Virus record (IMG/VR): IMGVR_UViG_3300035670_000028
Coordinates: 64,001-128,000 of that record
Origin: a virus
DNA length: 64,000 nt
Direction: 5' to 3' (one strand)
In this document: positions 5,206-46,955 of the stretch, piece after piece
Layout of the letters: each line of letters starts with the position of its first letter
Numbering within the stretch: position 1 is the stretch's first letter
Translations under genes and position numbers: made by a program
Notes under the pieces: model-generated
What the model saw: the letters and a program-made list of their open reading frames with translations, nothing else
What the model was told of the DNA's origin: nothing
Database searches by the model: none

Positions 5206-5211
5206 TGGATC

Positions 5212-10915: not shown

Positions 10916-10922
10916 TAAGGAG

Positions 10923-11375: not shown

Positions 11376-11382
11376 GGCGCAT

Positions 11383-11703: not shown

Positions 11704-11727
11704 TACGACAGAACGCATCGGAGACAT

Positions 11728-12663: not shown

Positions 12664-12668
12664 GGACT

Positions 12669-20552: not shown

Positions 20553-20577
20553 TCGCATACCTAATCTTGAGGTGCTC

Positions 20578-20982
20578 ATGACAGAGATCAATCTGACAGG
20601 CCTCACGACTGCTACTAAGGGCACGTGGGCCTGGGTAAAAGAAAACTGGCTCACCCTGGTTCTTGCTGTTGCGCTCATTGGCTGTGCCTACGTAATGCTT
20701 TCTCAGAAGTCGGCAATGAATGCTGTGCTCGAGCAGTACAGGGCACAAATAACTGAGTCGCACAACGACATCACGCAGTTAGAGAGTGTCGTTGAGAGTG
20801 AGAGAACAGCCAGAGAGACAATGCAGCGTGAGTTCAATGAGAGGATCAATGAGATCGACGAGCGCTACACGAAGGCGATAAACGACATACGCAGGGATCG
20901 TGCACGACGGATCAGAGAGCTCATGGAAAACACTCCAGAGCTCGACAATCGATTCGGCGAAAGGTTTGGGATACCTGAATGA
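20578..20982 (+). CDS. Putative i-spanin (Rz-like)
   Basis: N-terminal TM helix then coiled coil; followed by a lipoprotein gene. Confidence 0.55.
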   Translation: MTEINLTGLTTATKGTWAWVKENWLTLVLAVALIGCAYVMLSQKSAMNAVLEQYRAQITESHNDITQLESVVESERTARETMQREFNERINEIDERYTKAINDIRRDRARRIRELMENTPELDNRFGERFGIPE

Positions 20983-21563: not shown

Positions 21564-21621
21564 TCCTCCTGTAAATCATACGCATATTTAGTAGAGTCCA
21601 CAGAACGGACTGGAGATCACC

Positions 21622-22971: not shown

Positions 22972-22973
22972 CA

Positions 22974-23393
22974 ATGCGTCGATTGCTCAAAGAGATGATG
23001 GAGAACTACCTGGACGATCTCGAGAGCCACACGCCTCAGATTCCTGAAGTTCCAATGCTCAGTAGGATGCCTGGCTCTCAGCAGCTCCCTGTCAAGCCAC
23101 GCGCGACGACTTGGGTGGTCGACAAGAGCAAGAATTGCCTGCAGCGAACATTTGAGTTCGACTCTCACACTCGCATGTGCGACTTCGTTAGGGAGCTGCT
23201 CGACTATGAGATGTCGACGCAGCACTACGGCAGGATCCTGTGCGAGTTTCCAAGCGTGTCGATTGAGGTCCGGACCCACGATCTGGACGCAGTGACAGAG
23301 CTCGACAAGGAGTACGCTAGACACTGCGACATGATTTTTGACGATGTGATTCACTTCCGACAGAATGAGAACTTTATAGATGACGTCTACTAA
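22974..23393 (+). CDS. phhB: Pterin-4a-carbinolamine dehydratase-like protein
   Basis: LQRTFEF..F..., H, VSIEVRTHD..VTELD..A pattern; HHP replaced by HYG. Confidence 0.75.
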   Translation: MRRLLKEMMENYLDDLESHTPQIPEVPMLSRMPGSQQLPVKPRATTWVVDKSKNCLQRTFEFDSHTRMCDFVRELLDYEMSTQHYGRILCEFPSVSIEVRTHDLDAVTELDKEYARHCDMIFDDVIHFRQNENFIDDVY

Positions 23394-23829
23394 AAAACAG
23401 AAGATCGATGACGAGTGGTCAAGAGTGTCGCAGAATCCTGACAACATGATTGTGAGCGATGTCATTAAGGAGAGCATAGACAAGCTGCTCAGTGTCAAGG
23501 ACACAGCGGTTTCATCAGTGCCACCAGTTGTCTCACTCTCTGGAGAGGGTATTGAGCTTAGCATGGAGATGAGCAGGATTGACATGGCACCCAATGGGTG
23601 GTCTGTGTCCTGCATTGCTGGGATGAGTGACGGATACTCTCTGATTGGCACAGATAGGAAGAAGTGGAAGAGGATAGCAGTCTGCGCTGAGCCAGGAGCA
23701 GCTCCTCTCTGGCAGGCAGACATAAGGGCTGATGTGATTCGCGTGGAGGTTGAATTCCCCGCAGCCACAGGTCTCAGCATTGTGAATCTGTCTTGCTCCA
23801 ACGAGCGTGAACAAACACGCGTACTGTGA
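23380..23829 (+). CDS. Hypothetical protein
   Basis: ORF in operon. Confidence 0.6.
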   Translation: MTSTKKQKIDDEWSRVSQNPDNMIVSDVIKESIDKLLSVKDTAVSSVPPVVSLSGEGIELSMEMSRIDMAPNGWSVSCIAGMSDGYSLIGTDRKKWKRIAVCAEPGAAPLWQADIRADVIRVEVEFPAATGLSIVNLSCSNEREQTRVL

Positions 23830-23852
23830 ATATTTAAGGGCTGGAGACCAAG

Positions 23853-24068
23853 ATGTCACACCCAGAAGATGATTATCAGGACGACCTAAATGAGTCAGAG
23901 ATGGCTCGAACCTTTCAGTTCGACAAGTTTGTCGAGGACCTCGAGCGTCGAGAGAGGCTCCGCCGAGAGATGTATGAGAACGTTCCGACAGACCACAACC
24001 AGCTGAACAGGCAGCGTGACGCTCAGAATCGAGAGCAGCTTCACAACAGAATTCGGTGGTCTCGATGA
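23853..24068 (+). CDS. Hypothetical protein
   Basis: ATATTTA at 23830, GGAG RBS, LNE motif. Confidence 0.6.
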   Translation: MSHPEDDYQDDLNESEMARTFQFDKFVEDLERRERLRREMYENVPTDHNQLNRQRDAQNREQLHNRIRWSR

Positions 24069-24832
24069 GCACCAAGGACATTAAGTCCCTCGACATCCTT
24101 GTTAAGACTCTCGCCTCTCGAGTGATCAAGGAGACCCTATCACCGCTCCAGGGCAAGGAGACCGAGGAGGACCGCCAGCACGTGATGGCCAAGGAGCTCC
24201 AGTCAATCCGCAAGGCGCCCAGGTCTAAGTCATCAAAGGACGAGGACCTCGAGGAGGCTGAGGACGAGGAGAAGAAGGAAGAGCCCTCAGATGATGAGGG
24301 TGAAGCTGAGTCTGCCCCTGAGGAGAAAAAGTCCTCTGAGTTCGTCTCCAAGAAGATTGCCACGGGCAAGGAGGAGCCAAAGAAGCCGAAGGCCGTGATT
24401 CCTGACCCCACAGAGATCAAGGACGTCACGTTCAATCAGGTCGTCAATATGATGAACATGATGCGATCAGGCAAGTCTGCGAAGGATCCTGACACCAAGA
24501 AGAAGCTTGACTCCTACTTCAAGAACCTGAATCCCGGAGAGAAGCAGGCGCTCTTCGTGCTGTTAAGCGGTCTGACCCAGATTCTTGCAGGTGGTGTCGA
24601 GGGAGATGAGGCGCCTGATCCTGGCAAGGTTGGAATCAAGATACGGCCCAAGCCCTCTGACAAGGACCGACCTGCAAAGACGCCTGAGAAGGTCATGAAG
24701 ACGCCCGGGTCACCTGCCTCCGTCACAAAGCCGACTCCTGCTGCCGATGAGAATCTTCCCATCATCGTGGGTGAGGCTGCTGATCGGTCAAATGTGCTGA
24801 ACAGGGTTAGAAAACTTATGGTGAGGTCATGA
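24065..24832 (+). CDS. Putative virion-internal protein
   Basis: Charged linker; NMMRSGKS.KD; C-terminal RVRKLM. Confidence 0.65.
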   Translation: MSTKDIKSLDILVKTLASRVIKETLSPLQGKETEEDRQHVMAKELQSIRKAPRSKSSKDEDLEEAEDEEKKEEPSDDEGEAESAPEEKKSSEFVSKKIATGKEEPKKPKAVIPDPTEIKDVTFNQVVNMMNMMRSGKSAKDPDTKKKLDSYFKNLNPGEKQALFVLLSGLTQILAGGVEGDEAPDPGKVGIKIRPKPSDKDRPAKTPEKVMKTPGSPASVTKPTPAADENLPIIVGEAADRSNVLNRVRKLMVRS

Positions 24833-25152
24833 AGATCACTAAGAAGCAGCTTAGGATGCTCATAGAGCAGGCGGTCGTTGAGAGTGTGACCGGCGAGAGA
24901 ATGCACCGGTGCTTCCACGGTAATTTAGTCCCATGGGGCACGCAGGAGTGTGTTGACGATATCTCAGCGCGCATGGACGACGCGCGGGCAGTTCGAGACG
25001 AGTGCGACAACCGCACTGACAAGCGTGATTACTACAACGGCGTGCTCAAGGTGCTCCGGCGCGAGCTCCGTGACGCTCAGAAGGTGCTAGGTCTCAACGT
25101 CGAGTCCGATCAGCCCGAGGACGACAACATCCTGCTGGACGACGAGGTCTGA
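24829..25152 (+). CDS. Tagged putative virion protein, Cys-containing
   Basis: MKITKKQLRMLIEQ. Confidence 0.65.
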   Translation: MKITKKQLRMLIEQAVVESVTGERMHRCFHGNLVPWGTQECVDDISARMDDARAVRDECDNRTDKRDYYNGVLKVLRRELRDAQKVLGLNVESDQPEDDNILLDDEV

Positions 25153-25153
25153 C

Positions 25154-26437
25154 ATGGGCGGCGTAGCAGGACACCTCTCGCACCTCCATGAGTCAATGGA
25201 CCTCACGTTCGGTGAGATCAAGAGCATCCTTCAGGATGTTGCCACGGCGAACATCAGCGCGCTCGAGAAGGTGGACGGACAGAACATCTTCTTTGGCTGG
25301 GACGCGAAGACAGGCCAGGTCCGCACTGCTAGAAACTCCGGAGACATCGCGAAGGGCGGCATGACCCCCAAGGAGTACGCGGACAAGTGGAAGGGTCACC
25401 CAGCTGAGTCTGCGTTCATGAGCGGTTTCTCAGCGATTGAGCAGGCCATCAAGAGCATGAGCAAGAAGGACCTGACCGCGATCTTCGGCAAGAACAATGA
25501 CAGGTACGTCAACGCTGAGATCATGTACAGCGGCAATCCCAACATGATCCAGTACGATGGAAACTACATCGTGGTGCACAACCTACAGTCATTCGCCGGC
25601 GGTGAGCAGGGAGTCGTCGACACGGGAGAGTTCGACCAGCTTGTCGCCGCAATTGAGGGCTTCGATGCGAAGGTGTCTCGGCAGAAGTGGAAGGTGCACG
25701 GACCACAGCTCGTGGCGCTTAGGGACATCAGCGAGGGAAAGCACTACGACAGCCTAGTGGCAGCCCTTGATAGGGCATCAGGTGGAATGTCCGACAGCGC
25801 GACAATCGGCGACTTTGTGGCTGAGAAGCTTCGTGCAGGCGCTGTGGGAAAACTGAAGATGCCCGAGGAGCGCAAGGAGCGGCTCATCGCACGCATCATC
25901 GGCCTCACGCGCGGCGATGATCCAAAGTCCCTACCTGACCTCCGTGAGCTCAAGCAGGGACTGGACAAGGCGACGCAGGTCAAGATCTCTGAGATGGCCT
26001 CCACATCCTCTGCCCGAGGCACAGCATCGGTGGTCGTTGCGCCCATTGAGCGTGCAATCAGTGACTTCGCCATTGAGGTGCTCAGGGGAATGCAGTCGTT
26101 CTTCGTCTCCGACCACGACACCGAGGTGCAGAGGCTGCGCGCTGAGCTCGAGGACGCAGTCAAGAAGCTGCAGTCCGCGAAGGGCGCCGACGCGAAGACA
26201 ATAGGCGACATGCTTGTGAGGCATCTCGAGAAGCTGGGACACGTCGAGAACGTCGCGCAGTCCATCGAGGGTGTTGTCTTCGAGTATCCTCCTGGCAGCA
26301 AGCAGCTCTACAAGCTTACAGGATCGTTCGCCATGGTCAATCAGATCATAGGACGTGCTCGACGGATGAGTGAGGGCGACGCACCTGTAACCGAGTCACG
26401 TAGTCGCGGATACTTAGCTGCATTCCTCCTAGGATGA
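25154..26437 (+). CDS. Ligase-like (covalent nucleotidyltransferase) protein, RNA-ligase-like
   Basis: Motif I EKVDGQN, motif III-like NAEIM, motif IV EGVVF, motif V YKLTG. Confidence 0.65.
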   Translation: MGGVAGHLSHLHESMDLTFGEIKSILQDVATANISALEKVDGQNIFFGWDAKTGQVRTARNSGDIAKGGMTPKEYADKWKGHPAESAFMSGFSAIEQAIKSMSKKDLTAIFGKNNDRYVNAEIMYSGNPNMIQYDGNYIVVHNLQSFAGGEQGVVDTGEFDQLVAAIEGFDAKVSRQKWKVHGPQLVALRDISEGKHYDSLVAALDRASGGMSDSATIGDFVAEKLRAGAVGKLKMPEERKERLIARIIGLTRGDDPKSLPDLRELKQGLDKATQVKISEMASTSSARGTASVVVAPIERAISDFAIEVLRGMQSFFVSDHDTEVQRLRAELEDAVKKLQSAKGADAKTIGDMLVRHLEKLGHVENVAQSIEGVVFEYPPGSKQLYKLTGSFAMVNQIIGRARRMSEGDAPVTESRSRGYLAAFLLG

Positions 26438-26440
26438 CTC

Positions 26441-27640
26441 ATGCCCTACACAATCAAGAAAGAGAAGTGCAAGAAGTCAGACGGAGGCAGCGGCAGTCAC
26501 AGGCTTCGATACACGGATAAGAGCGGAAAGAAGCACAGCTCCTGTCACTCATCCAAGAAGAGCGCGCAGGGATCAATTGCAGCGATAGAGATGCGTCGAG
26601 AGGAAGACGAGATGAGTGTTAGGGAGGAAGTAATGTCTGAGATCTTATTGAGAGAGTCTATTCGTGTAATTTTAAGTGAAGCAGGCAATCTGTCAGCACG
26701 AGAAATGCAGAATAGAGCAAAGCGTTGGGATATCTTTCTACAAAAGATGAAAGAGAAGTCTCCGTTTTTTGATCTTGAAGACAATCAGTTTGTAATACCT
26801 GTCGCAGGAAATAAAGCACTTGTTTCAGCTCTCAAAACACAGGATCCTGATGCATACAATGCTGCATTTCAAAGTGGAATTACAACGATTCCTCCTGGAT
26901 CGATTTCGACTCCTTCTAATCTTAAGAAAACACCAGAGTTTGGAGGGCTGGCATCGGGTGCTAGACTAGCAAAAGAGCAAGGACAAATCGATCAAATACA
27001 GGCAGCACTTGACTTAGTTTCTCCTGTCAATGTGTTTGTTGGAAACAAGAAGGCAAAAAATGTTGTTGCAGTTCAAAAAGTAGAAGGTACTCCAAAAGCA
27101 GATGCAGTTTTAGTCGATGAAGCAGGTAAAAAGGTTGCAGCTATATCTCTAAAAGATGCAGATACTCCTACACAGATGCAGCAGTGGGGAGGAATCGATA
27201 ACTACGCTGATCATCCTGAAGTTATTGATTTCGTAAATGATCTTAAGGCAGTGCATGCAAATTCGCCCACAGGCAGAATTGAAACTGCATATTTTCGAAA
27301 GCTGAATGATCCTGAATTAGCTAGAAAAATATGTTATGGAAATGGCACAAGCTTTGAAAACAATTGTGACATGATTATTGCGTCCCAGGCACCAATTCAG
27401 ATTAGTAGTTCAGGAAAAATAACAGCAACGAATATATTCTATGCGCCAGAAATACCGTCTGGTGAATGGGCACCTACTTTTTGGGCAACTTGGCGCACTG
27501 GCCGTGGTAAAAATCTGGGTCTAACAGATATTCGAGTTGGAGTTTATCCTCTTGCCTGGGGAAGCACAAGAGCAAACGAGCCGCTCCCATCATCTAAAAA
27601 ATCTGCACGTACGACTAGATCAAGTAAAACCTCTAGATAA
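26441..27640 (+). CDS. PD-(D/E)XK-like nuclease with basic N-terminal module
   Basis: GTPKADAVL...ISLK...QQWGG; lower GC; internal LRESIRVILSE tag. Confidence 0.55.
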   Translation: MPYTIKKEKCKKSDGGSGSHRLRYTDKSGKKHSSCHSSKKSAQGSIAAIEMRREEDEMSVREEVMSEILLRESIRVILSEAGNLSAREMQNRAKRWDIFLQKMKEKSPFFDLEDNQFVIPVAGNKALVSALKTQDPDAYNAAFQSGITTIPPGSISTPSNLKKTPEFGGLASGARLAKEQGQIDQIQAALDLVSPVNVFVGNKKAKNVVAVQKVEGTPKADAVLVDEAGKKVAAISLKDADTPTQMQQWGGIDNYADHPEVIDFVNDLKAVHANSPTGRIETAYFRKLNDPELARKICYGNGTSFENNCDMIIASQAPIQISSSGKITATNIFYAPEIPSGEWAPTFWATWRTGRGKNLGLTDIRVGVYPLAWGSTRANEPLPSSKKSARTTRSSKTSR

Positions 27641-27659
27641 ACACAGCGAGTAGCTACAA

Positions 27660-27929
27660 ATGAAAAATTCATTAAGAACATCGATAAGAACAATTCTCAA
27701 GGAAGAGATCACCTCTGCCGACAAGAAGGAGATCGAGAAGATCGCCCGAAAGCAGGCAGAACTTACTCTCAGCCGCGAGCTTGGCCCGGACGTCATGAAG
27801 ACCATTCGCGCTGAGGTCGAGAAGGTGACTGAGAAGACGCTCGGCGGCAAGGAGTCCCAGGCTCAGATCGAGGAGCTCGTGGTGGCAGTTGTCAAGCGCC
27901 TCTACAAGGACATCACGGTCGGCAGGTGA
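27660..27929 (+). CDS. Tagged putative virion protein
   Basis: LRTSIRTILKEE. Confidence 0.6.
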   Translation: MKNSLRTSIRTILKEEITSADKKEIEKIARKQAELTLSRELGPDVMKTIRAEVEKVTEKTLGGKESQAQIEELVVAVVKRLYKDITVGR

Positions 27930-28098
27930 CCAAGGAAGACCTCAAGTGGCCGCTAGGCCTCGTGCTCATGCTGTATATGCTGGGCTTCGCCCTGTACAGC
28001 AAGTTGTGCTGATGCCAGAGGTCCTATAGGACATCCGATTGCCGACCATGGTTATACCCATTCGTCGGATTCGAATCAATCTGTGATCATTCTGGGGG

Positions 28099-28929
28099 TT
28101 ACAGAATCGATCTGATGAGGGCTCGAAGCAGGGCCTCCGACTGCACCTTTGCTCCGCGCCGCTCGAGTGGGCAGCCGGCTGCGATCGATTGTGAGAGGAT
28201 CGTGCCGATCTCCCGCTTGGCAGCGTCGGACATTGGTGGGAGAAGAGCTGAGAATCCCTTGATGTCGCCCTTGCACAGCATGTCTCTCATCTTGGTGCCG
28301 CTGATCTCCACGGTTGCAGTCCTGGGTATACCAACTCCTTGGATGCAGGGTGCCTCGCAGTCAGCTCCCACGCCAGCCCACAGGTCACCGAACTGCGCCC
28401 TCATCGCCTCGTCCGGATAGTTGCCCACGATGTCCACACTGTCGGAGTAGATGCTGATCACAGTCTCGTCGACCCGTGCCGTCACATTGAGGTAGGGCAC
28501 TCTAAATGACTCACTTCCTGCGTCATATGCAGCCTTGAATGCCTCACACACCTCGAACACGTTCCTCACCGGTGCTGGGCCCACGCCGTCGTCTGGAGTG
28601 AGCAGCCTCACGCTGCTGGGAAGGTCGAGATTCGGTTTGAGAATGTTGGTCCAGATGTACTTCATGTCCGCCCCGAACACAGGGGTCTCACCGGGAGCGG
28701 GCACCTCAATCTTGCGGCCACCCTTTGTGAGAGGCCTCTTATCTGATGGGTCCTTGACCGACTTTGTGCCGCGACCAGAGTAGGAGATGAACACACCCAC
28801 CACGTCGTTCTCAGGAAGGGCTAGCTCCTTCGCAGCCTCTGTGACCCTTAGCCCTGCTGAGATCTGCACCAGCATGTGGTGCCCCGCGTGGTAGGGCTTC
28901 GCGCTCATAGGTACCAGACCAATTTTCAT
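28099..28929 (-). CDS. HIGH-family nucleotidyltransferase (cytidylyl/adenylyltransferase-like)
   Basis: KPYHAGH and ISGTKMR motifs; C-terminal LLRALIRSIL tag. Confidence 0.8.
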   Translation of the reverse strand: MKIGLVPMSAKPYHAGHHMLVQISAGLRVTEAAKELALPENDVVGVFISYSGRGTKSVKDPSDKRPLTKGGRKIEVPAPGETPVFGADMKYIWTNILKPNLDLPSSVRLLTPDDGVGPAPVRNVFEVCEAFKAAYDAGSESFRVPYLNVTARVDETVISIYSDSVDIVGNYPDEAMRAQFGDLWAGVGADCEAPCIQGVGIPRTATVEISGTKMRDMLCKGDIKGFSALLPPMSDAAKREIGTILSQSIAAGCPLERRGAKVQSEALLRALIRSIL

Positions 28930-28940
28930 GTGTTCTCTCC

Positions 28941-28977
28941 GGAGTATACTTAGCTGTGACAGCCATAACTATACTCC
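28941..28977. promoter_or_regulatory. Palindromic divergent late-promoter region
   Basis: GGAGTATA...TATACTCC inverted repeat carrying ATACTTA (+) and ATAGTTA (-). Confidence 0.5.
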
Positions 28978-28998
28978 TGACCTGTCAAGAGATAACAG

Positions 28999-30279
28999 AT
29001 GAACGAGAGGCAGCTAAGAGGTGTGATACGACAGATTCTGCATGAGCAGAAAAGTCGAAGGACTCTTCTAGAGTACGGAGACGATGGCGATGGCGATGGC
29101 GGTGCACTCTATAAAGCATTTGTATCTCCATTTGTTGATGTCCTTCAGGCAACTAAACTCGCGAGTCAAGGCATTCTCAACTCGATCAAGCTTGTTTTTA
29201 AGACACTAATCACGCTAAGTCCAAAGAAGCTTGTTGAGGCTCGAAATGACTACACAAAAGTCAAAGACACTCTAGACAAGGAATGGGGGCCTCTCATGAA
29301 GAAGGCCAGAGACTCTGTCGAGAACAGCGACTTTGGTCTTGTCACATTTGCAGTTGCTCCGAATCTATTTTTCGGGTATCAGCTTGCAAAGTTTGGAGCT
29401 GACGCGCCAGGAACCGTTGTTGATTATTTTGAGGGTGCTGGGTGGGACGTTCCTCTGGGTGAGTGGATAAGAAAGACACCCGATGAGAGAGACTCAAGTG
29501 GTAGAGGCGGAGGAGGACGTGACGATGATGAAAGTGAGGGTGGCATAATGAAGTCCCTCCGAACGTTCTTCTTTGGTGAGGGTGTTAGTAGCAAGATTGG
29601 ACCTGACGGAAGACTGCTAAGCGAGGCAGAAGAGGATGAGAAAAAGCAAGACAAATCAGGCCTCTCTAAGTCCAACATCAATGAGAAGATTAACGAATAC
29701 TTTGCAGAGACGGGCTTCGATAAGACGCTCGATGATCTAGCCGATCAGTTTGTGAAAGCAAAGCAAAATCACGCTGATAAGCTTGTTGCAGCCTCTAAGC
29801 AGCAGACAGACACTCTCAAGGCATTCGCAGCTGCGAAGGACATCCCTGAGTTCGAGAAGGTTATTGAGTCCTCAAAGAAGCTCGGCGCTGATGTCTCAGA
29901 AATACAGAAGAAAATTGATGAGCTCAAGAGAGACATCACAAAGAAGTCTGAGGATCTGCTCGAAGATCCAAAGTTCAAGGAAGACATCAAGAAGAAAGCA
30001 AAGGGAAAAGAGCTTTCAGATGCCGACATGAAAAAGGCTACAGAAAATGCAGCAGCTAAGGCTGCTGAAGAGGCCATTGGTGAGCTCAAGAAAAGCGTGA
30101 GTGATGCCCTTAAAGAGTCATTCGACCAGATAAAAAAGCAGATACGAGATGAGCTGACAGATGACATGCCAGATCAAAAGAGCCCATTCTACAAGGCATT
30201 TGCCGCATCACCTCGCGGTAAAGAGATTCTTGCAATAGTCGATAAAGCAGTCAACTCTGTGGGTCCCACCGGTGGATGA
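28999..30279 (+). CDS. Tagged putative virion-internal protein
   Basis: QLRGVIRQILHE; LLE/LSE motifs; helical, Lys-rich. Confidence 0.65.
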   Translation: MNERQLRGVIRQILHEQKSRRTLLEYGDDGDGDGGALYKAFVSPFVDVLQATKLASQGILNSIKLVFKTLITLSPKKLVEARNDYTKVKDTLDKEWGPLMKKARDSVENSDFGLVTFAVAPNLFFGYQLAKFGADAPGTVVDYFEGAGWDVPLGEWIRKTPDERDSSGRGGGGRDDDESEGGIMKSLRTFFFGEGVSSKIGPDGRLLSEAEEDEKKQDKSGLSKSNINEKINEYFAETGFDKTLDDLADQFVKAKQNHADKLVAASKQQTDTLKAFAAAKDIPEFEKVIESSKKLGADVSEIQKKIDELKRDITKKSEDLLEDPKFKEDIKKKAKGKELSDADMKKATENAAAKAAEEAIGELKKSVSDALKESFDQIKKQIRDELTDDMPDQKSPFYKAFAASPRGKEILAIVDKAVNSVGPTGG

Positions 30280-30472
30280 TCTCCGCCTAATCATTCGTGA
30301 GATTCTGCTCGAGGAGTTCATCGGCAACAAGGGCGGAGTGAACTACTACCAGATGGGTGGCTCTATCGGAAAACCTGAGCTCTACAATCTAGACTCCAAG
30401 GGAAGGCCCACAAGAGATCCGGGCGTCCCAGGACTCAAAAAGCGTAAGAGAAACAGAAAACGCAAAGAGTGA
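30272..30472 (+). CDS. Small tagged basic protein
   Basis: LRLIIREILLEE; basic C-terminus. Confidence 0.6.
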   Translation: MDDLRLIIREILLEEFIGNKGGVNYYQMGGSIGKPELYNLDSKGRPTRDPGVPGLKKRKRNRKRKE

Positions 30473-30495
30473 CTCAAATATTTAGGAAAGACGCC

Positions 30496-31422
30496 ATGAA
30501 TAGAAGAGAAGAGCAGGTAATCCGCGATTACGTTCGAATGCAGTTGATAGAGCAGCGTCTACACGAGGCGTCGCAGGGAATGCTAACAAAAGCACTCGAG
30601 ACTGTCACTGATAAGATTGAGTCCGTTCTGAGCAATCTCAGGCAGCTAGGCGGCGATCGCAAAGAGCTACTAGACACGCTCAAGAAGAACGATGGAACTG
30701 AAGCCCTGTCTGCTATTCAGAAACAGGGTGGTGATCTCACAAAACTTGTGAGTGTCCTAAAGACTGCTACACCTGAGCTCAAGGAGGGCACGAGAGCCCA
30801 CCGACGTCACCTCCTCGCAGAGGCTAGAATGCGAGTAACAGACAGGAGGGTGCTCATCAATGAGTCACTGACACTTTTTGCTGCAACAGGGCTAGTGTTT
30901 GCAATCATTGGTGGAATTCCACTTGTGCTTAAAGCACTGGGATGGATTGTTGGTAAGACAAAGTTTAAGTCAGCAGCAGAGAAGATAAACAAGGCAGCTG
31001 AGTTCTTCCATCACCTCGAAGAGGCGTGGATGAGTCTCATTCCAAATAAGCCGCTCTACGCTGTCTACATAATGCTCGAGAGTAAAAATGAACCGGAGCG
31101 TGTTGCGAATCTCAAGATATATGAAGAGGATCCAGAGAATCCTGTTAAGGGCGGCGTTGGATCCAGATCAATGACATTTGAGGAATTTGAAAAGTCAAAG
31201 CTGAAAGTTAAGTACGAGAAGTACGCTTACGCAATCATTATGCTGCCGTGGCTCATAAGCGGTCTCACACAGCTCCATCATGCACTGCATGGGTGGCTTG
31301 GTGCGGTGGAAGCCGCTGCCACCGCTGAGAAGACGTTGTTTGTGGGCACTGCCACTGCCGATGTTGTGACAAAGGGTGCTGCAGAGCTATCTGCTGCTGC
31401 TAAAGCGCTGTCTTCTGTCTGA
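30496..31422 (+). CDS. Putative virion/ejection protein with hydrophobic helices
   Basis: LIE/LHE/LKE/INE motifs followed by TM-like segments; ATATTTA at 30478. Confidence 0.6.
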   Translation: MNRREEQVIRDYVRMQLIEQRLHEASQGMLTKALETVTDKIESVLSNLRQLGGDRKELLDTLKKNDGTEALSAIQKQGGDLTKLVSVLKTATPELKEGTRAHRRHLLAEARMRVTDRRVLINESLTLFAATGLVFAIIGGIPLVLKALGWIVGKTKFKSAAEKINKAAEFFHHLEEAWMSLIPNKPLYAVYIMLESKNEPERVANLKIYEEDPENPVKGGVGSRSMTFEEFEKSKLKVKYEKYAYAIIMLPWLISGLTQLHHALHGWLGAVEAAATAEKTLFVGTATADVVTKGAAELSAAAKALSSV

Positions 31423-31479
31423 TTTACAGATCTTCTGCGCACATTACTATTCTCTGAGATTTCTATCCTGGAGAGCGTA

Positions 31480-31845
31480 ATGTCGAAGACTGGCAAATCA
31501 AAGAAGTGGGTCCCACAAATTGAGTATGAGGAGGCAGAGAACGGCCTCACGTCCAACATACCATTTATCACTGTTCCAGACGGTGAGGAGATGCCTAGGA
31601 TGCTCTTCGTCTTTGAGTCAAGGGACACGGGCGAGATCGAGCCAGGTCCGGAGGGTGAGGATGTGCCTGTGGTCGAGCTCAACCTGCATCAGTACGTGAA
31701 CATGGTAAACCTGAAGATGGGTCTCACACCTGCTGAGTACGATAGAGTGCGGTTTGTTCTCGGCCTCGATCCCCTGAAGAAGGCTGAAGAGGCGGGCAAG
31801 AAGATAACAGATGCGGTTCGAAAGAAGGTTGAAGGATCTAACTGA
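31480..31845 (+). CDS. Hypothetical protein
   Basis: TTTACA-N16-TACTAT at 31423-31450; GGAG RBS. Confidence 0.65.
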   Translation: MSKTGKSKKWVPQIEYEEAENGLTSNIPFITVPDGEEMPRMLFVFESRDTGEIEPGPEGEDVPVVELNLHQYVNMVNLKMGLTPAEYDRVRFVLGLDPLKKAEEAGKKITDAVRKKVEGSN

Positions 31846-31851
31846 CTTCAA

Positions 31852-31879
31852 TGTAAACGATGCGAACTTCACATATAAT
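31852..31879 (+). promoter_or_regulatory. TGTAAA-N16-TATAAT promoter
   Basis: Matches the recurring motif. Confidence 0.6.
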
Positions 31880-31906
31880 TCCTTGCGGCTCTAGCAAGGA
31901 ATACTA

Positions 31907-32569
31907 GTGGCATCAATTACAAGAGATATTGCAGTAAAGTCAATTCAGAGAATGACGCAGTTTCACAAAGAGACGAATGATCTCTTTGAGAAGTATGGCA
32001 TGGATCTACTCTCTGATCTCGGAAGAAGAAATACTCTACTCTCTACTGCGCAAGAAAAATTCTTTAGTGATTCACTGAGAGAATCAGGCTATACTGTTTC
32101 CAGCGATGGTAGACCAGGACAGCCTGATATCATTGTGACAGATCCTGTAACAGGTCACACTTCTGAGCTAGAGTGCAAGCTAACAACTAGAAACTCGTCA
32201 GGCGGTGTTGTTCTTCAGACAGATTATGAGACGCTGCAGAAGAAAGGGACACTCGACTACCTCTACGTGATTGCCAGCCCTGAGTTCACAGAGTTCTGTG
32301 TGCTATACTTCACAGGACTCACGTCGGATGACTTCAGGGTGCCGGCTGCTGGCTCTAGAGGCAAGGCGGGCATGGTCAAGCACCGGTGCTACAACAAAGC
32401 AACTGTTCTTATGGGTGAGTACAGGAGCCTGAGAGCTGATAATCTGTCACGCCTCGAATCGCTCATGGCGTCCAAAATTCCTCCGTGGAAGAGAAAAAAG
32501 TGTGAGAAGTCTCTAGAGTATTGGCGTTCAGCACCCGATCGGCATAGTGTTGTGCTGGAAACAATCTGA
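31907..32569 (+). CDS. PD-(D/E)XK restriction-endonuclease-like protein
   Basis: QEKF...GQPDII...ELECK...DYLYV. Confidence 0.6.
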   Translation: MASITRDIAVKSIQRMTQFHKETNDLFEKYGMDLLSDLGRRNTLLSTAQEKFFSDSLRESGYTVSSDGRPGQPDIIVTDPVTGHTSELECKLTTRNSSGGVVLQTDYETLQKKGTLDYLYVIASPEFTEFCVLYFTGLTSDDFRVPAAGSRGKAGMVKHRCYNKATVLMGEYRSLRADNLSRLESLMASKIPPWKRKKCEKSLEYWRSAPDRHSVVLETI

Positions 32570-34464: not shown

Positions 34465-34659
34465 ATGACAGCTCGTAAGCCGGTGAGTGACCGGGATCTT
34501 GTATCACTTAGACAGCGCGGCCTGATCCTCGCTGAAGAGACTGCTTTCTGGCAGGACGGCGTTCTAACAGTAGAAAACCTTATCAATAAGCAGCAGAGGC
34601 TACTGACAGTCGATGTCAGCACTCTACTAGAGTCAAATAGAAGGGTGCTAAAGGGCTGA
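34465..34659 (+). CDS. Hypothetical protein
   Basis: GGAGG RBS; C-terminal LLES..RVLKG. Confidence 0.6.
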   Translation: MTARKPVSDRDLVSLRQRGLILAEETAFWQDGVLTVENLINKQQRLLTVDVSTLLESNRRVLKG

Positions 34660-36296
34660 TGACTGCATTTAAGAACCTCACGTTCGGGGATGAGGCCCGA
34701 GAGAAGATCCAGCGTGGCGTCAATATTCTCTCCGACGCTGTGAAGGTCACAATGGGTCCTCGAGGCCGCAACGTGATCATCGAGAGGGAGTCTGGCCCAC
34801 CGCACCTGACGAAGGACGGCGTGACAGTCGCCCAGGCAATCGACCTCAGGGACAGGTTCGAGAATCTCGGAGCGCAGATGGTGAAGGAGGCCGCACAGCG
34901 GAGCGCCGAGATCGCAGGCGACGGCACCACGACCTCCACAGTCCTCGCCCAGGAGATCTACAACGAGGGCCTCAAGATGATCTCTGCGGGATTCGAGCAG
35001 TCAGAGGTGTGCAAGGGCATCACGGACGCCGCGGCCGCCGTGATTCAGTCCGTGTCAGAGATCTCACGCCCCATTGTGAGCGATGAGGACATCGTGCACG
35101 TCGGAACAATTTCCGCCAACGGGGACCGAGAGATCGGTGAGCTCATTGCTCGGGCCCTGTCATCGGTGGGTCGTGATGGCACGGTCACTGTCGAGGAGGC
35201 GAAGGGATTTGAGTCGACCCTCGACGTGGTCGACGGCACCCAGATTCCGCGCGGCTACCTCTCACCCTACTTCGTCACCAACCACGACAAGCTCCTGTGC
35301 GAGCTCGACAACCCGTACATCATTCTCGTCAACAAGACCATTTCCTCCATCAAGGAGCTGCTCCCGTTGCTCGAGCGCCTGCACAATGAGAAGCGATCTG
35401 CCCTTCTCATATCTGACGACCTCGACGCCGAGGCACTGCAGGCACTTGCTGTCAATAAGTTGAAGGGCATCCTGTCCATCTGCGCAATCAAGGCCCCGGA
35501 GTTTGGGGACACGCGGGTCCACACGTTCGACGACCTGTCGCTTCTCACCGGCGCGTCTGTGATCAATGCAGCGACACTTGACTCAGGCAAGGCATTTGAC
35601 ACACTCACACTCACCGCCTGCAAGAAGGCCATTGTCACCAAGACGTCGACTACGCTAGTGGGCTGCAAGCCACCCAGCGCCGACCTCCTCACAGAGCGTG
35701 TGAAGTCCCTCAGGGAGAAGCTCAGCGACCCCTCGCTGCAGGGTCCAGAGAGGGAAGTGACGCAGCGTCGGCTCTCAAGGATATCCGGAGGAGTCGCTGT
35801 GCTTCGTGTCGGTGGATCCACGGAGATTGAACTGAAGGAGCGCAAGGACAGGGTCGATGACGCACTCCACGCAACCCAGGCTGCAATCGAGGAGGGCATT
35901 GTTCCTGGTGGTGGAACTGCCTTGATCCGCGCCTCGAAGTGCTTGGATAAGCTTGTACAAAGGGATGAGGACAGCTACAATTGTGGAGTTAGAATCATGA
36001 GGACAGCGTGTGAGGCTCCCATGAGGCAGATTATTCTTAACTCCGGCGTGTCACCAGACATTATTCTGGAGCGTGTAAAGAAGATGAAGGGAAGCCAGGG
36101 CTATGACGCTCGAGGCGAGACATACAAGGACCTGATCGCTGTGGGAATCATTGATCCCACGAAGGTCGTCAAGTCAGCTGTGAAGCACGCAGCTTCCGTT
36201 GCGTGCAACCTTCTGTCCATCGGTGCTGCTGTCACTTACGATGTGAGAGAAGCTTCTGACGACATGTCACAAGATAGTTCGCTTTTGTTCGGTTAA
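34659..36296 (+). CDS. groEL: Chaperonin GroEL (phage-encoded)
   Basis: TMGPRGRNV, TKDGVTVA, GDGTTT, RGYLSPYF, EEGIVPGGG, IIDPTKV. Confidence 0.97.
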   Translation: MTAFKNLTFGDEAREKIQRGVNILSDAVKVTMGPRGRNVIIERESGPPHLTKDGVTVAQAIDLRDRFENLGAQMVKEAAQRSAEIAGDGTTTSTVLAQEIYNEGLKMISAGFEQSEVCKGITDAAAAVIQSVSEISRPIVSDEDIVHVGTISANGDREIGELIARALSSVGRDGTVTVEEAKGFESTLDVVDGTQIPRGYLSPYFVTNHDKLLCELDNPYIILVNKTISSIKELLPLLERLHNEKRSALLISDDLDAEALQALAVNKLKGILSICAIKAPEFGDTRVHTFDDLSLLTGASVINAATLDSGKAFDTLTLTACKKAIVTKTSTTLVGCKPPSADLLTERVKSLREKLSDPSLQGPEREVTQRRLSRISGGVAVLRVGGSTEIELKERKDRVDDALHATQAAIEEGIVPGGGTALIRASKCLDKLVQRDEDSYNCGVRIMRTACEAPMRQIILNSGVSPDIILERVKKMKGSQGYDARGETYKDLIAVGIIDPTKVVKSAVKHAASVACNLLSIGAAVTYDVREASDDMSQDSSLLFG

Positions 36297-43068: not shown

Positions 43069-43386
43069 ATGGCAGGATCTGATAGCACAAACGCACCTGG
43101 GCGTCCATGGACGATTGTAGGCACATTCTCAACGTACGAGGCTGCTTCCGCAAAGGCAGCCCAGCACAAGGGCCCGAGGAACGTCGAGGTGAAGATCAAG
43201 AAGCTGTCGACAGGCTTCACGGTTCGAACTCGTCAGGAGGAGCGTGCGGCATCTCCTGTTCATCAGGAGTCCGCGCCCTCAGGCGCAGTGAAGAAGACCA
43301 AGATGAAGGCGAAGGAGCGGCGTGCTCTGGAGCGCAGCGCCAGCGCTGAGGACTCTCTTGATTCGCCTGCTGAAAAAACTTCCTAA
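43069..43386 (+). CDS. Basic hypothetical protein
   Basis: GGAGG RBS. Confidence 0.6.
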   Translation: MAGSDSTNAPGRPWTIVGTFSTYEAASAKAAQHKGPRNVEVKIKKLSTGFTVRTRQEERAASPVHQESAPSGAVKKTKMKAKERRALERSASAEDSLDSPAEKTS

Positions 43387-43966
43387 CACCGTATACGTGG
43401 CAGTGTCAGGTGGTGTTGACTCGATGGCAGCACTTGACTTCGCCCGCCGCGGCAAGCGGGCAGTTCACGTGCTTCACTTCGACCACGGCACAAAACACGG
43501 CTCCGAGGCGAGAAAGTTCATCGAGGCGTACTGCTCATCGGAGCGTATTCCTCTGACAATCTCATCACTGCAGCGTCCCAGGGATCCCAGTGAGTCACTA
43601 GAGGAGTACTGGCGCAATGAGAGGATCAGGTTCTTTAGGGAGCACACTGACGCTCCGATTGTGACAGCGCACCACTTGGACGATGCAGTTGAGTGGTGGA
43701 TCTTCACCTCTCTTCACGGATCGCCTAGGCTCATGTCGTACAGTAATGACGCGACGGGTGTGATCAGGCCCTTCCTCGCGACGCCAAAGGACGAGCTTGT
43801 CTCGTGGTGTGAGAGGAAGGGTGTGCCGCACGTGAGCGATCCCAGCAATGAGTCGAGAAATCACAGCAGGAATAGGATTCGTCACGATATTGTGCCGCAT
43901 GCCCTCGTAGTCAATCCTGGGCTTCGGACTGTAATCAAGAAGAAGATTGTGGAGGAGCTAGGATGA
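43358..43966 (+). CDS. tilS: tRNA(Ile)-lysidine synthetase, short form
   Basis: AVSGGVDS, HFDHG, E..WR..R, TAHHLDD, RPFL, DPSN, RNRIRH..VP; lacks C-terminal domains. Confidence 0.9.
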   Translation: MIRLLKKLPNTVYVAVSGGVDSMAALDFARRGKRAVHVLHFDHGTKHGSEARKFIEAYCSSERIPLTISSLQRPRDPSESLEEYWRNERIRFFREHTDAPIVTAHHLDDAVEWWIFTSLHGSPRLMSYSNDATGVIRPFLATPKDELVSWCERKGVPHVSDPSNESRNHSRNRIRHDIVPHALVVNPGLRTVIKKKIVEELG

Positions 43967-44271
43967 CTGACAAGAAGATATTCTATATTGTTGAGGCATT
44001 GCGGTGGGGTGATCGCGAGAGTCACTCATACATTGTTGGACTGTACAGTGAGCTCGACCGTGCGAAAGCCGCAGCCGATGCGCACTCAGAGTACCGCGGA
44101 GGTAAGTACTCTTGCCAGGTGTTCCAGTGCGCTGTTGATGAGGAAGTTGACACTGACTGGAATGCGTCACTTCTGTATGAGTCCAAGTGTGCATTTGAGA
44201 TAGACAAGGACGCAGCAGACTTCAGGTCAATTCTTGAGACGCTCTCAAAGCGTGCAAAGGAGCGCCAGTGA
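43963..44271 (+). CDS. Hypothetical protein
   Basis: YIVEALRWGDRESHSY; GGAGG RBS. Confidence 0.65.
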   Translation: MTDKKIFYIVEALRWGDRESHSYIVGLYSELDRAKAAADAHSEYRGGKYSCQVFQCAVDEEVDTDWNASLLYESKCAFEIDKDAADFRSILETLSKRAKERQ

Positions 44272-44534
44272 ACGATAAGTCAGAATCAGGTCTTAAAATC
44301 TCGCTGGCGATCTCCGGCATCATCTTGCTATTGGGCGCCATCTACCTAGCGTTCACCAGGGAGCAGAGATCCGCTGTGGAGAGAGTAGAGGCCCTTCGAA
44401 GACGGTGCGAGTCGACAGGCGGAGTGTACATTGAGGGCACATCTGGACCCTATGGCGGCGACACGCAGTTCTCCCTCTGCATTCCTGAGCGCGCATTCGA
44501 GTGCATCGACTCCGAGATAGTGGATGTCGAGTGA
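44268..44534 (+). CDS. Membrane-anchored small protein
   Basis: TM helix; CESTGG. Confidence 0.6.
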   Translation: MNDKSESGLKISLAISGIILLLGAIYLAFTREQRSAVERVEALRRRCESTGGVYIEGTSGPYGGDTQFSLCIPERAFECIDSEIVDVE

Positions 44535-44713
44535 TGGATGAAAAGGCCCACATTGATAGTATCGTCGTCGCGATCCGTCAGAGGATGCGGGCCCGATGGC
44601 CAAAATTGCAAATTCTTCAGGAGCTTGGTAAACAAGTGCCCATGGACCTGCTATTCATATGCTACAAGGCAGCTGCCCTGATGGAGCGCGATTACGGCAG
44701 GAGAATGGACTGA
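44534..44713 (+). CDS. Hypothetical protein
   Basis: TGATG overlap. Confidence 0.55.
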   Translation: MDEKAHIDSIVVAIRQRMRARWPKLQILQELGKQVPMDLLFICYKAAALMERDYGRRMD

Positions 44714-44723
44714 TCTTACTTAT

Positions 44724-44812
44724 AGAGGGGTGCGTGAGTGGTTGAAACGGCGGCACTGGAAATGCCGTGTGCCCGCAAAAGGGCACCGGAGGTTCGAATC
44801 CTCTCCTCTCTG
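44724..44812 (+). tRNA. tRNA-Ser(GGA)
   Basis: Acceptor AGAGGGG/CCTCTCT, anticodon arm CGGCA-CTGGAAA-TGCCG, long variable arm, GGAGG-TTCGAAT-CCTCT, G73; no encoded CCA. Confidence 0.92.
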
Positions 44813-44932
44813 CTAGAGACAGGGTGACGCATATTTAACGATTCATGCGATCACCACTTGATACCAAGGTAGTATGGGTGATGATAATCACCACAGGACT
44901 AGTCATTTACTTCAGCATTTTTAGGTGATAAC

Positions 44933-45193
44933 GTGATCTGGAACTATAGAATCATAAGACACCACAGTTCTCACACAGGTGACACAGGTGATGTTTGGTT
45001 CGCTGTGCACGAGGTGTACTACGATGAATCAGACAATCCTGTTGGCATCACTGAGCGACCGATCGCACCGCAGGGTCAGACGTTAGAGGAGGTGCTGAAG
45101 GACATGGAGCTCATGAAAGCAGCTGCAGATAAGCCCACGTTGGATTACACGCTATTCTCTGACACGGAACGAGGTAACAATGACGGTGAGTAG
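44933..45193 (+). CDS. Phage-type hypothetical protein
   Basis: WNYRII...VHEVYYD motif. Confidence 0.65.
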   Translation: MIWNYRIIRHHSSHTGDTGDVWFAVHEVYYDESDNPVGITERPIAPQGQTLEEVLKDMELMKAAADKPTLDYTLFSDTERGNNDGE

Positions 45194-45214
45194 AAAGTGT
45201 CCCTGTGATCATCT

Positions 45215-45472
45215 GTGTGCCTTCTGTGGAGTAGTCTTGTGAGCGGTGTGTACATGCATATGCAGGACGGACAGCTCTACCTGCTCAGGTGGGCACAAAG
45301 AGTCCTCACCTCACCGGCGCAGCTCGAGGCGATCGCCTACAATCAGCCTGGCCTTCGTGTGATTCAGGACGTCAATAGGATTGACTTTGTCACGCTGAGT
45401 CCTGAGGCGCTTCGCAGGCCCTCAGTTCCTCCAGTTGATCCCGCTTCCTCACCCCGGGGAGTTGACGAGTGA
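45215..45472 (+). CDS. Hypothetical protein
   Basis: ORF only; start uncertain. Confidence 0.4.
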   Translation: MCLLWSSLVSGVYMHMQDGQLYLLRWAQRVLTSPAQLEAIAYNQPGLRVIQDVNRIDFVTLSPEALRRPSVPPVDPASSPRGVDE

Positions 45473-45562
45473 TCGCGCTTTATTACGGCATTCTCATCTC
45501 CTTGCTAATTCTTCCGCCGGCTGTCGCGATCAAATGCGATACCTATGTCAAGGAGGTTGTGT

Positions 45563-45781
45563 ATGAACAATCGTCTGCTAATGATAAAGGTGTTCCTGTG
45601 GCGGCTGGTGTCAATTCCGATATCAGCTATCGCGACCTATGTCTACACCGGTGAGATGAGGAGCTCGATCGAGCTCACAGTGATCCTCACCATTGTCCTC
45701 ACCACATGTCAGTTTGTGTACGAGAAGATGTGGCGCGCGTTCTTGGTGGATAGGCTGAAAAAGGTTCTAAAGAAATTGTAA
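45563..45781 (+). CDS. DUF2061-like small membrane protein
   Basis: K...WR..S.....YVYTG ... YEKMW pattern; AAGGAGG RBS. Confidence 0.6.
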   Translation: MNNRLLMIKVFLWRLVSIPISAIATYVYTGEMRSSIELTVILTIVLTTCQFVYEKMWRAFLVDRLKKVLKKL

Positions 45782-45804
45782 AGACACCTGACGCAATCTA
45801 TAAT
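45777..45804 (+). promoter_or_regulatory. TGTAAA-N16-TATAAT promoter upstream of tRNA-CAT
   Basis: Matches the recurring motif. Confidence 0.65.
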
Positions 45805-45817
45805 ATAAACATACTTC

Positions 45818-45900
45818 GGGCCGTTGGCGGAATTGGTCAAACGCAGTCGCCTCATAAGCGATCGCCTTCGGGTTTGGGGGTTCGAGTCCCTCACGGCCTA
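45818..45900 (+). tRNA. tRNA with CAT anticodon and long variable arm (Ile2-like arms, Leu-like core)
   Basis: GGGCCGT/ACGGCCT-A73; D arm GCG-GAATTGGTCAAA-CGC; GTCGC-CTCATAA-GCGAT; 13-nt variable region CGCCTTCGGGTTT; GGGGG-TTCGAGT-CCCTC. Confidence 0.88.
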
Positions 45901-45920
45901 CTAATTGTTGATTGAAAGAT

Positions 45921-46955
45921 ATGGAAACAGCTCTAAGTTTTGATGATGTGTTGCTGCTGCCGCAGCACTCCGATATCGCGCACAGGGGAGACATTGACAT
46001 CAGCGTCGACCTCAAGAGATTCGGAAAGATTCGAAGCCCCATCATCTCCTCACCGATGGACACGGTGACAGGTGGACGTCTAGCAAAGATGATGTGGCAC
46101 TTGGGAGGCCTAGGCATCATTCACCGCTACAACTCAGTGACATCACAGTGCGATGAGGTGGATACTGCCTGCACTACTTCAGGTGTCTCAAATCCCACAC
46201 ACCACTGCGGTGCTGCTGTGGGTGTGACAGGCGACTACCTTGAGCGCGCTGTGAGGCTTGTTGAGAAGGGCGCGTGCCTCATTTGCGTCGATGTCGCACA
46301 CGGCGACCACTCACAGGTGGTGTACGCAGTCGAGAGAATCCGCAAGGAAGTGGGAAGCAGAGTCCACATCATGGCGGGCAATGTGGCGACTCGAGAGGGA
46401 TTTGACCTGCTTGTCAGGTCGGGCGCGGACAGTGTTCGTGTTGGAATTGGCGGCGGATCGATCTGCAGCACACGCACACAGACAGGTCACGGCGCACCGA
46501 CCCTGTGGTCCATCATTGAGTGCGCGAAGTCGGAGAACTCAGGCGAGGCAGCCATCATCGCAGACGGCGGCATTAAGACATCAGGTGACGCTGTCAAAGC
46601 TCTCGCGGCAGGAGCTGATGCTGTCATGCTGGGATCAATGCTGTCTGGAACTGATGAGACTCCGGGCGATCCTGTCTGGATGAACCTGCGGTCCTACAAG
46701 AAGTACAGGGGCATGGCCTCAGTGGAGGCACAGGTTTCCTGGAGGGGACACGCAGCCTCAGAGGAGGGTGTCACTGCATGGGTGCCCTGCAAGGGTCCGC
46801 TTCACGAGGTGCTCGGATCGATCGAGCGTGGAATTCGTAGCGGCCTCTCCTATTCCGGAGCAGTCAGCATCGCAAACCTGCAGGCAAAGGCGAAGTTTAT
46901 GAGAATCACGCCTGCAGGTATACTAGAGAGCACTACACACATCAACAACATCTGA
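45921..46955 (+). CDS. IMP dehydrogenase/GMP reductase family, no CBS domains
   Basis: [48 protein letters not shown]. Confidence 0.93.

Follow-up and report, generated by a model that had tools for sequence, protein, structure and literature searches.

Which codon, and which amino acid, is served by a tRNA that carries the anticodon CAT on a body with a long variable arm? In bacteria and phages, such an arm is taken as the mark of Leu, Ser, Tyr and Sec tRNAs, and the question is raised by a locus in a 64,000-nt stretch of viral DNA (hereafter the window), i.e. bases 64001–128000 of the IMG/VR record IMGVR_UViG_3300035670_000028, a single virus record of 147,186 bp with a completeness of about 44 % (CheckV). 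The locus combines a class II tRNA(CAT) with a gene for a short tRNA(Ile)-lysidine synthetase (TilS). Our analysis suggests that a tRNA apparently derived from tRNA-Leu has probably taken the place of the canonical tRNA-Ile2 beside a phage TilS without C-terminal domains, and that it would read AUA as isoleucine for ATA-rich late genes.

The tRNA gene was called by ARAGORN as tRNA(cat) at 45818–45901 (84 nt counting C74), and the Rfam tRNA model matched positions 45818–45900 with 54.2 bits (E 4e-10). The acceptor stem, GGGCCGT/ACGGCCT, gives G1·U72, C4:G69 and C5:G68, and is followed by U8, G9 and a D stem of 3 bp (G10-C11-G12 with C23-G24-C25) next to G13·A22, with AAUUGGUCAA as the D loop. 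The anticodon stem GUCGC/GCGAU includes C29:G41 and closes the loop CUCAUAA, the variable region of 13 nt (CGCCUUCGGGUUU) folds into a 3-bp stem (G-C-C/G-G-U) with a UUCG loop, and the T arm reads GGGGG-UUCGAGU-CCCUC, with A15/U48 and A73 present. ARAGORN, Rfam and the reading of the sequence thus bear out the initial annotation, made from the sequence alone, as regards the anticodon CAT, the 13-nt variable arm, the 3-bp D stem, A15/U48 and A73. It had also noted the absence of U12:A23, and indeed G12:C23 and the 13-nt arm stand in the place of the U12:A23 pair and the short variable loop of class I tRNA-Ile2. An initiator tRNA-fMet identity was rejected, as C1×A72, A11:U24 and GGG/CCC are absent and the tRNA has G1·U72, C11:G24 and GUCGC/GCGAU instead. 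The sigma-70-like site upstream of the gene (Table 1) is a consensus match alone and carries no evidence of function.

This tRNA belongs to a family that is real and under selection. In an alignment of 12 distinct family sequences from viral and metagenomic contigs, the CAT anticodon and the loop CUCAUAA are invariant, and the same loop is found in 24 canonical phage tRNA-Ile2. Stem cells are paired in 99.3 % of cases and 12 of the 23 pairs have changed on both sides, a level of pairing and covariation matched by none of 500 shuffles; compensatory changes occur in four of the five stems, including two-thirds of the pairs of the variable arm. Also invariant are A73, A15/U48 and G18G19. The possibility of a pseudogene or of a sequencing error, with CAA as the true anticodon, is ruled out by CAT in all 12 distinct relatives; CAA or TAA in relatives, which the initial annotation had pointed to as speaking against the tRNA, was looked for, and every relative has CAT.

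The family is conserved and phage-specific. Pattern scans using features of the tRNA only found the same tRNA in IMG/VR at three further loci (L081, L082 and L108), and a pattern scan of metagenomes yielded 18 contigs, in all 18 of which ARAGORN called a tRNA(CAT) of 84–89 nt. A looser pattern gave 35 matches in 185,579 species genomes, just one of which is such a tRNA. Among GenBank phages, no near-identity match to the 4-kb region was found, and the sole match in a distant search with tRNA(CAT) was the tRNA-Leu of Aeromonas phage 65 (77 % over 66 nt). As these searches returned no family member, no cultured phage among those in GenBank carries the class II tRNA(CAT) family.

Where the body of the tRNA comes from was addressed with covariance models built from 18 phage tRNA-Leu and 24 canonical phage tRNA-Ile2. 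The window tRNA scores 73.5 bits on the phage-Leu model versus 52.5 bits on the phage-Ile2 model, and since unrelated class I tRNAs reach 45–62 bits on the latter, it is Ile2-like only in its anticodon loop. Its nearest tRNA outside the family is the tRNA-Leu(CAA) of locus L005, with 78 % body identity and an anticodon one base apart, and it has the G1·U72 pair and the T arm in common with several phage tRNA-Leu(YAA) that adjoin TilS. These comparisons indicate that the body is Leu-derived. Of the initial view of Ile2 arms on a Leu-like body, the second half therefore holds, the body being apparently Leu-derived throughout, and the Ile2 arms do not, given the model scores and the variation of C5:G68 and C29:G41 within the family. 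The same two pairs, along with C4:G69, had been proposed as determinants for Ile or TilS. All three are present in the window; C4:G69 is found in 10 of the 12 members and C29:G41 in nine, with replacements in the others, and the variants include U5·G68 in L081, A29:U41 in L153 and G4:C69/G5:C68/G29:C41 in L157. Since C5:G68 and C29:G41 vary in the family, they are not readable as retained Ile2 determinants.

One part of the body departs from the Leu type in every member. Between G18G19-U20 and A22, each of the 18 phage tRNA-Leu has A followed by G or U, whereas each of the 12 family members has C, U or G followed by A-A, so that the family D loop is 1 nt longer than in phage tRNA-Leu (2 nt in L153); in the window, GGU-C-A-A-A compares with the Leu-type GGU-A-R/U-A. 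For the leucyl-tRNA synthetase (LeuRS) of Escherichia coli, A20a, A15-U48 and G18G19 are listed as essential, and the enzyme does not read the anticodon (PMC9976931). The window tRNA possesses A73, the Levitt pair A15-U48 and G18G19 and lacks A20a, the loss of which would lower leucylation. Nor is a Leu anticodon (NAG or YAA) seen, with CAT in all family members.

TilS enzymes of type I consist of an N domain followed by two C-terminal domains, CTD1 and CTD2, and those of type II of the N domain and CTD1, and it is the C-terminal domains that tell tRNA-Ile2 from tRNA-Met (PMC11947777). The window TilS reaches 117.7 bits on the N-domain model TIGR02432 (lysidine_TilS_N, NCBIfam; cut-off 93.6) and 49.8 bits on the full-length model NF007942 (cut-off 606), and it aligns only with residues about 20–220 of the solved TilS structures 3A2K, 1WY5 and 1NI5. 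Its PP-loop SGGxDS is intact, and the motifs SGGVDS, HHxDD and RNRxR align with 3A2K. The N-domain match covers all 202 aa, i.e. the C-terminal domains for the tRNA body and the acceptor stem, CTD1 and CTD2, are absent. An in-frame GTG at 43322 is a possible upstream start, while relatives align from the ATG. The proposed TilS of about 202 aa without C-terminal domains, about 1.9 kb upstream of the tRNA, is thus borne out by the TIGR02432 match, the structural alignment and the distance of 1,852 nt from the end of TilS to tRNA(CAT). A split enzyme with its C domain in the next open reading frame (ORF) finds no support, as the ORF at 43963..44271 has neither a Pfam match nor a TilS C-domain signal; its conservation is limited to the nearest relatives with a class II tRNA.

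About 90 relatives of the window TilS, of about 200 aa, were found in IMG/VR viral contigs. To the same protein family belongs the TilS of the Pseudomonas jumbo phages PA5oct and MIJ3, which has about 203 aa and the N domain only and is 44.7 % identical to that of the window (PMC6892783; MK797984 EST35_0433). In the papers on these two phages, TilS is reported without a function and the missing C-terminal domains are not remarked on (PMC6892783). In PA5oct, unlike in the window, the TilS gene has no tRNA closer than 4 kb.

Evidence that the two genes belong together comes from their linkage, for which the tRNA matches were taken from scans that made no use of TilS. In all eight loci with enough flanking sequence (the window, L001, L154, L160, L153, L168, L157 and L171), a TilS gene lies within 4.5 kb of the class II tRNA(CAT), although the TilS proteins of class II loci are only 27–71 % identical to that of the window. 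The gap is 1.85 kb in the window, 2–4.5 kb in L001, L153, L154 and L160, 138 nt in L168, and 39 nt from ORF end to tRNA in L157 and L171. When viewed from the side of the enzyme, 72 distinct short-TilS loci have as their nearest tRNA(CAT) a canonical one in 27 cases and a class II one in 10 (including L003, which has both types), with none within 6 kb in 35. The canonical tRNAs of the 27 loci are 75–78 nt long and of a uniform Ile2 type (U12:A23, 5-nt variable loop, A73 and encoded CCA), and in about half of these loci they lie within 50 nt of TilS. In L168, L157 and L171, it is the class II tRNA that occupies this canonical tRNA-Ile2 slot beside TilS. No other tRNA(CAU) was found in the 147-kb record or in its 183-kb relative G001.

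The TilS tree places the window in one clade with L154, L160 and L001 (support 98), next to L002, L004, L005 and L073, which carry class I tRNAs; the remaining class II carriers are placed elsewhere. On this tree, the type of tRNA must have changed five times or more, or twice or more when only well-supported branches are trusted. Such scattering of class II carriers means that the tRNA either moved among TilS-bearing phages or arose more than once.

Several other long-armed tRNAs were encountered in the course of these scans (ARAGORN calls). L068 has a class II tRNA(CAT) of unrelated sequence (7518–7605, 88 nt) at 876 nt from a short TilS, abutting a tRNA-Leu(TAA); L003 has one of 84 nt with a U1×U72 mismatch (3157–3240) at 2.8 kb from TilS, in addition to a canonical tRNA-Ile2; L169 has one in a tRNA array (1772–1860) which keeps the Leu-type D loop (GGUAGA); and L130 has one (6182–6265) in a contig of an Atopobiaceae metagenome-assembled genome (MAG). 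Candidate long-armed tRNAs for other amino acids in TilS-bearing loci are Cys GCA (L013, L021, L044 and L053; 82–89 nt), Trp CCA (L069/L070; 85 nt), Asn GTT (L042; 89 nt) and Thr TGT (L062; 83 nt), a set that may include mis-folds or introns. In L006 (6001–6790), a short TilS is followed about 15–40 nt on by a tRNA-Leu(TAA), and no tRNA(CAT) is present within 6 kb of TilS in L006 or L009.

A second, unrelated family of class II tRNA(CAU), 89 nt long and with an initiator-like C1×A72 acceptor end, was found in L094–L106 (e.g. L098:10848–10936, with 11661–11734), always about 0.7–0.9 kb from a 74-nt initiator-like tRNA(CAU) with A11:U24. Its contigs are those of huge phages of 205–362 kb without TilS, one of them rated 100 % complete, and those in which several tRNAs were called also have an amber suppressor tRNA(CTA). 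A tRNA with the anticodon CTA, which might point to amber suppression and TAG recoding, likewise occurs in G001 (L152:1501–1575; G001:C1:102253–102326), whose class II tRNA(CAU) is accompanied by a divergent TilS.

If the tRNA reads AUA, what does this codon mean in the phage? It is in considerable use, with 369 ATA codons making up 15 % of Ile codons. Their distribution is uneven (e.g. window 5182–9279 and L084:306–12959, i.e. G000 19306–31959): none of the 68 Ile codons of the DnaE-type polymerase is ATA and none occurs in the ligase, while three adjacent large genes of the tail/structural region, without PHROG match, have 29, 19 and 36. Accordingly, the share of ATA among Ile codons is 19–37 % in the first 30 kb (tail/structural region) versus 6–9 % in the replication region. 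The enrichment partly tracks third-position A content (Spearman 0.47), and ATA enrichment in the structural genes is supportive, not specific.

When phage proteins were aligned to homologues in other contigs, leaving out class II carriers and homologue ATA codons, 124 ATA codons faced I at 0.30, V at 0.23, L at 0.18 and M at 0.04, a profile like that of ATT and ATC (I 0.36–0.42, L 0.15–0.17) and unlike those of ATG (M 0.41) and of Leu codons (L 0.41–0.56; ATA versus Leu codons, chi-square p 9e-83). In conserved columns, ATA gave I 12, V 6, L 4 and A 1, again as for ATT and ATC. Inside the class II clade, 52 window ATA codons faced ATT/ATC 22 times, ATA five times and Leu codons three times, and CTA faced Leu codons in 60 of 96 cases. 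These profiles show a genome written with ATA as Ile and ATG as Met. A reassignment of AUA to Leu as the meaning of ATA in this genome was therefore rejected, also inside the carrying clade. The initial annotation had offered a Leu-charged tRNA with sense-codon reassignment as one of two outcomes and an alignment of ATA and ATG codons to Leu columns as the check; the check contradicts this outcome for both codons.

Taken together, we regard it as probable that the tRNA is the Leu-derived successor of canonical tRNA-Ile2 at the side of a domain-less TilS. The other outcome offered at the start, a remodelled tRNA-Ile2 with a dedicated minimal TilS reading ATA, fits all of the comparative evidence, i.e. 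the linkage in 8 of 8 loci, the canonical slot and a heavily used, Ile-like ATA. The family would descend from a phage tRNA-Leu(YAA), from which CAU is one base change away in the case of CAA, and would have taken over the job done by the canonical class I tRNA-Ile2 in most other phages with a short TilS. Transcription of tRNA(CAT) would be driven by its own sigma-70-like promoter, after which the N-domain-only TilS of the phage would turn C34 into lysidine (k2C); without the C-terminal domains that read the acceptor stem, the short enzyme could accept any body presenting the CUCAUAA loop. The anticodon k2C34-A35-U36, together with (t6)A37, A38 and A73, would then direct charging by the isoleucyl-tRNA synthetase (IleRS) of the host, while the enlarged D loop without A20a would weaken recognition by LeuRS. 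The charged tRNA would read AUA as isoleucine and help to translate the structural genes, rich in ATA, in a host that presumably has little capacity to decode AUA. We infer every one of these steps.

Several points weigh against this interpretation. The lysidine, the expression and the charged amino acid of tRNA(CAT) are predictions. The tRNA retains the LeuRS elements A73, A15/U48 and G18G19, and the anticodon does not matter to LeuRS; it lacks U12:A23, an element for E. coli IleRS found in every member of the canonical phage tRNA-Ile2 set. In nematodes, Leu is the only amino acid charged onto class II tRNAs that bear an Ile anticodon (PMC3333845). The codon tests tell what ATA means to selection and not which tRNA reads it, and a tRNA-Ile2 of the host could supply that meaning. 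With the record about 44 % complete, a canonical tRNA-Ile2 could sit in the missing part. Finally, the identity rules are those of E. coli and may not transfer to the host of this phage.

The kept LeuRS elements lead to an alternative in which LeuRS charges the tRNA wholly or partly, placing Leu at AUA if it is lysidinylated and at AUG if it is unmodified, with statistical mistranslation of host or phage proteins as the outcome. It could draw on the score of 73.5 bits on the Leu model, on A73, A15/U48 and G18G19, on an anticodon that LeuRS does not read and on the precedent of nev-tRNA-Ile(UAU), charged with Leu only; an exchange of Ile for Leu, being conservative, might also be tolerated. We nevertheless deem it unlikely, as there is no excess of Leu at ATA compared with ATT/ATC sites (0.18 versus 0.15–0.17), ATA in the carrying clade swaps with ATT/ATC and not with Leu codons, ATG aligns to Met, and A20a has been lost in 12 of 12 members through three different replacements. 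Moreover, the phage's own ATA-rich structural genes would suffer most of the mistranslation. It is possible, if rather doubtful, that the class II body is a non-neutral replacement, either because the tRNA has a true dual Leu/Ile identity, such that infection leads to ambiguous AUA decoding, or because the long-armed body is an adaptation, be it as a private substrate of the domain-less TilS or as a tRNA that escapes those host enzymes or defence nucleases whose targets are class I tRNA-Ile2 or tRNA-Met; the initial annotation had likewise suggested that host anticodon nucleases might be evaded. A non-neutral body is favoured by the recurrence in phages of unrelated types of class II tRNA(CAU) (the window family, L068, L003, L169 and the 89-nt C1×A72 family), which are nearly absent from cellular genomes.

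The tRNA could instead be a class II elongator tRNA-Met, with C34 unmodified, charged by the methionyl-tRNA synthetase (MetRS) via CAU and reading AUG, its proximity to TilS being a by-product of the clustering of tRNA and translation genes. CAU is the main determinant for MetRS, unmodified tRNA-Ile2 accepts Met, and the 89-nt family of huge phages without TilS indicates that class II CAU tRNAs can exist without lysidine. This explanation appears quite improbable in view of TilS nearby in all eight informative loci, in three of them abutting in the canonical tRNA-Ile2 position, and of the lack of any other tRNA(CAU) seen in these phages for TilS to act on; there is also no special demand at ATG, whereas ATA makes up 15 % of Ile codons. 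Least credible of all, and in our view very improbable indeed, is a neutral relic, i.e. a decaying tRNA-Leu gene with a mutated anticodon, or an RNA with a non-translational role as a decoy or primer. The 3′ CCA is not encoded and the record has two tRNAs only, which would suit a relic; however, 12 distinct sequences retain CAT and the whole cloverleaf and show compensation in four of the five stems, the variable arm among them, the gene is directly preceded by a promoter-like site, and the linkage to TilS has been kept across TilS proteins that are only 27–71 % identical.

Seen beside known systems, the class II tRNA(CAU) with its short TilS is a variation on the known phage tRNA-Ile2/TilS theme. 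Lysidine-modified phage tRNA-Ile2(CAU), as in T4-like phages (PMC1524935) and, with k2C34, in a vibriophage (PMC13191261), shares CAU, the CUCAUAA loop, A37, A38 and A73 with the window tRNA, and both are presumed to read AUA after conversion of C34 to lysidine, serving phage codon usage. The known phage tRNA-Ile2 is of class I, with 76–78 nt, U12:A23 and a 5-nt variable loop, whereas the window tRNA belongs to class II and has G12:C23, a D arm of the Leu type and a variable arm of 13 nt. The nematode nev-tRNAs, class II tRNAs with Gly or Ile(UAU) anticodons, are likewise derived from tRNA-Leu and include an Ile-box anticodon; they are eukaryotic, weakly expressed and charged with Leu only in vitro (PMC3333845). 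Unlike them, the window tRNA has a CAU tied to a lysidine synthase, an Ile-like ATA in its genome and a D loop that has lost a LeuRS element. Allo-tRNAs and other non-canonical bacterial or phage tRNAs (PMC5389517, PMC7609411) also combine a long arm with anticodons other than those for Leu, Ser or Tyr, in metagenomes and phages, but in allo-tRNAs the acceptor/T branch is 8/4 or 9/3 and the identity is that of Ser (G73/U73), in contrast to the standard 7/5 and A73 of the window tRNA. In the literature searched, coverage of which is incomplete, no description of a class II tRNA(CAU) tied to TilS was found.

As for the surroundings of the locus (Table 1), the phage is a tailed one, its record encoding a DnaE-type polymerase, GroEL, an ATP-dependent ligase, two tail-sheath paralogues and virion proteins. 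Only two tRNA genes were called by ARAGORN in the whole record, tRNA-Ser(GGA) and tRNA(CAT), and the same pair is seen again in L081, L082, L154–L156, L159–L161, L163, L166 and L167, i.e. in the clade of the window. No match to PF00133, and hence no IleRS, LeuRS, valyl-tRNA synthetase or MetRS, was found in the about 44 % complete record. An attempt to infer the host via the neighbouring GMP-reductase-like gene returned only short contigs of single-amplified genomes and MAGs from unrelated taxa. The tail-sheath paralogues are adjacent (L083:7330–10440 and 10484–13543) and, with about 1,020–1,036 aa, about twice the usual sheath length, the sheath-family match in both being limited to the C-terminal 350–430 residues. 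They are followed on the opposite strand, within the tail-gene block, by an ATA-rich gene (nine codons) for a 570-aa HNH/homing-endonuclease-like protein (L083:13622–15334, minus strand).

Table 1. Features at and around the class II tRNA(CAT) locus (positions are those of the window)
Feature	Position	Strand	Evidence and remarks
GroEL-type chaperonin	34659-36296		PHROG 5725, E 1.6e-144
Minimal TilS (tRNA(Ile)-lysidine synthetase) of 202 aa, limited to the N-terminal PP-loop catalytic domain	43358..43966	+	Pfam ATP_bind_3 3.9e-34
102-aa ORF overlapping the TilS stop (ATGA)	43963..44271	+	tblastn 54-62 % identity, L081/L001/L082 only
tRNA-Ser(GGA)	44724..44813	+	Ordinary class II, G73; ARAGORN; Rfam 50.5 bits
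Sigma-70-like promoter match, TTGTAA-17 nt-TATAAT	45776..45804	+	10/12 in consensus scan, best of the region; 13 nt before the tRNA 5′ end
Class II tRNA, anticodon CAT, body apparently Leu-derived, A73	45818..45900	+	ARAGORN, Rfam; C74 at 45901, CCA not encoded
GMP-reductase/IMPDH-family enzyme	45912-46955		Start 11 nt past tRNA(CAT)

The finding is of clear interest for tRNA-identity research. If true, a conserved class II tRNA acting as tRNA-Ile2 would be a natural switch of identity from Leu to Ile, brought about by the anticodon and the modification of the wobble base. It would provide a test bed for the reliance of IleRS, LeuRS and MetRS on the anticodon loop versus the tRNA body, as well as for how a TilS without C-terminal domains distinguishes its substrate from tRNA-Met, a question open in the TilS literature even for type II enzymes (PMC11947777). 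The compact TilS and its orthogonal-looking tRNA(CAU) could also serve for the reprogramming of AUA codons. For the phages themselves, the pair would represent a module of a tRNA plus its modifier for the translation of ATA-rich late genes.

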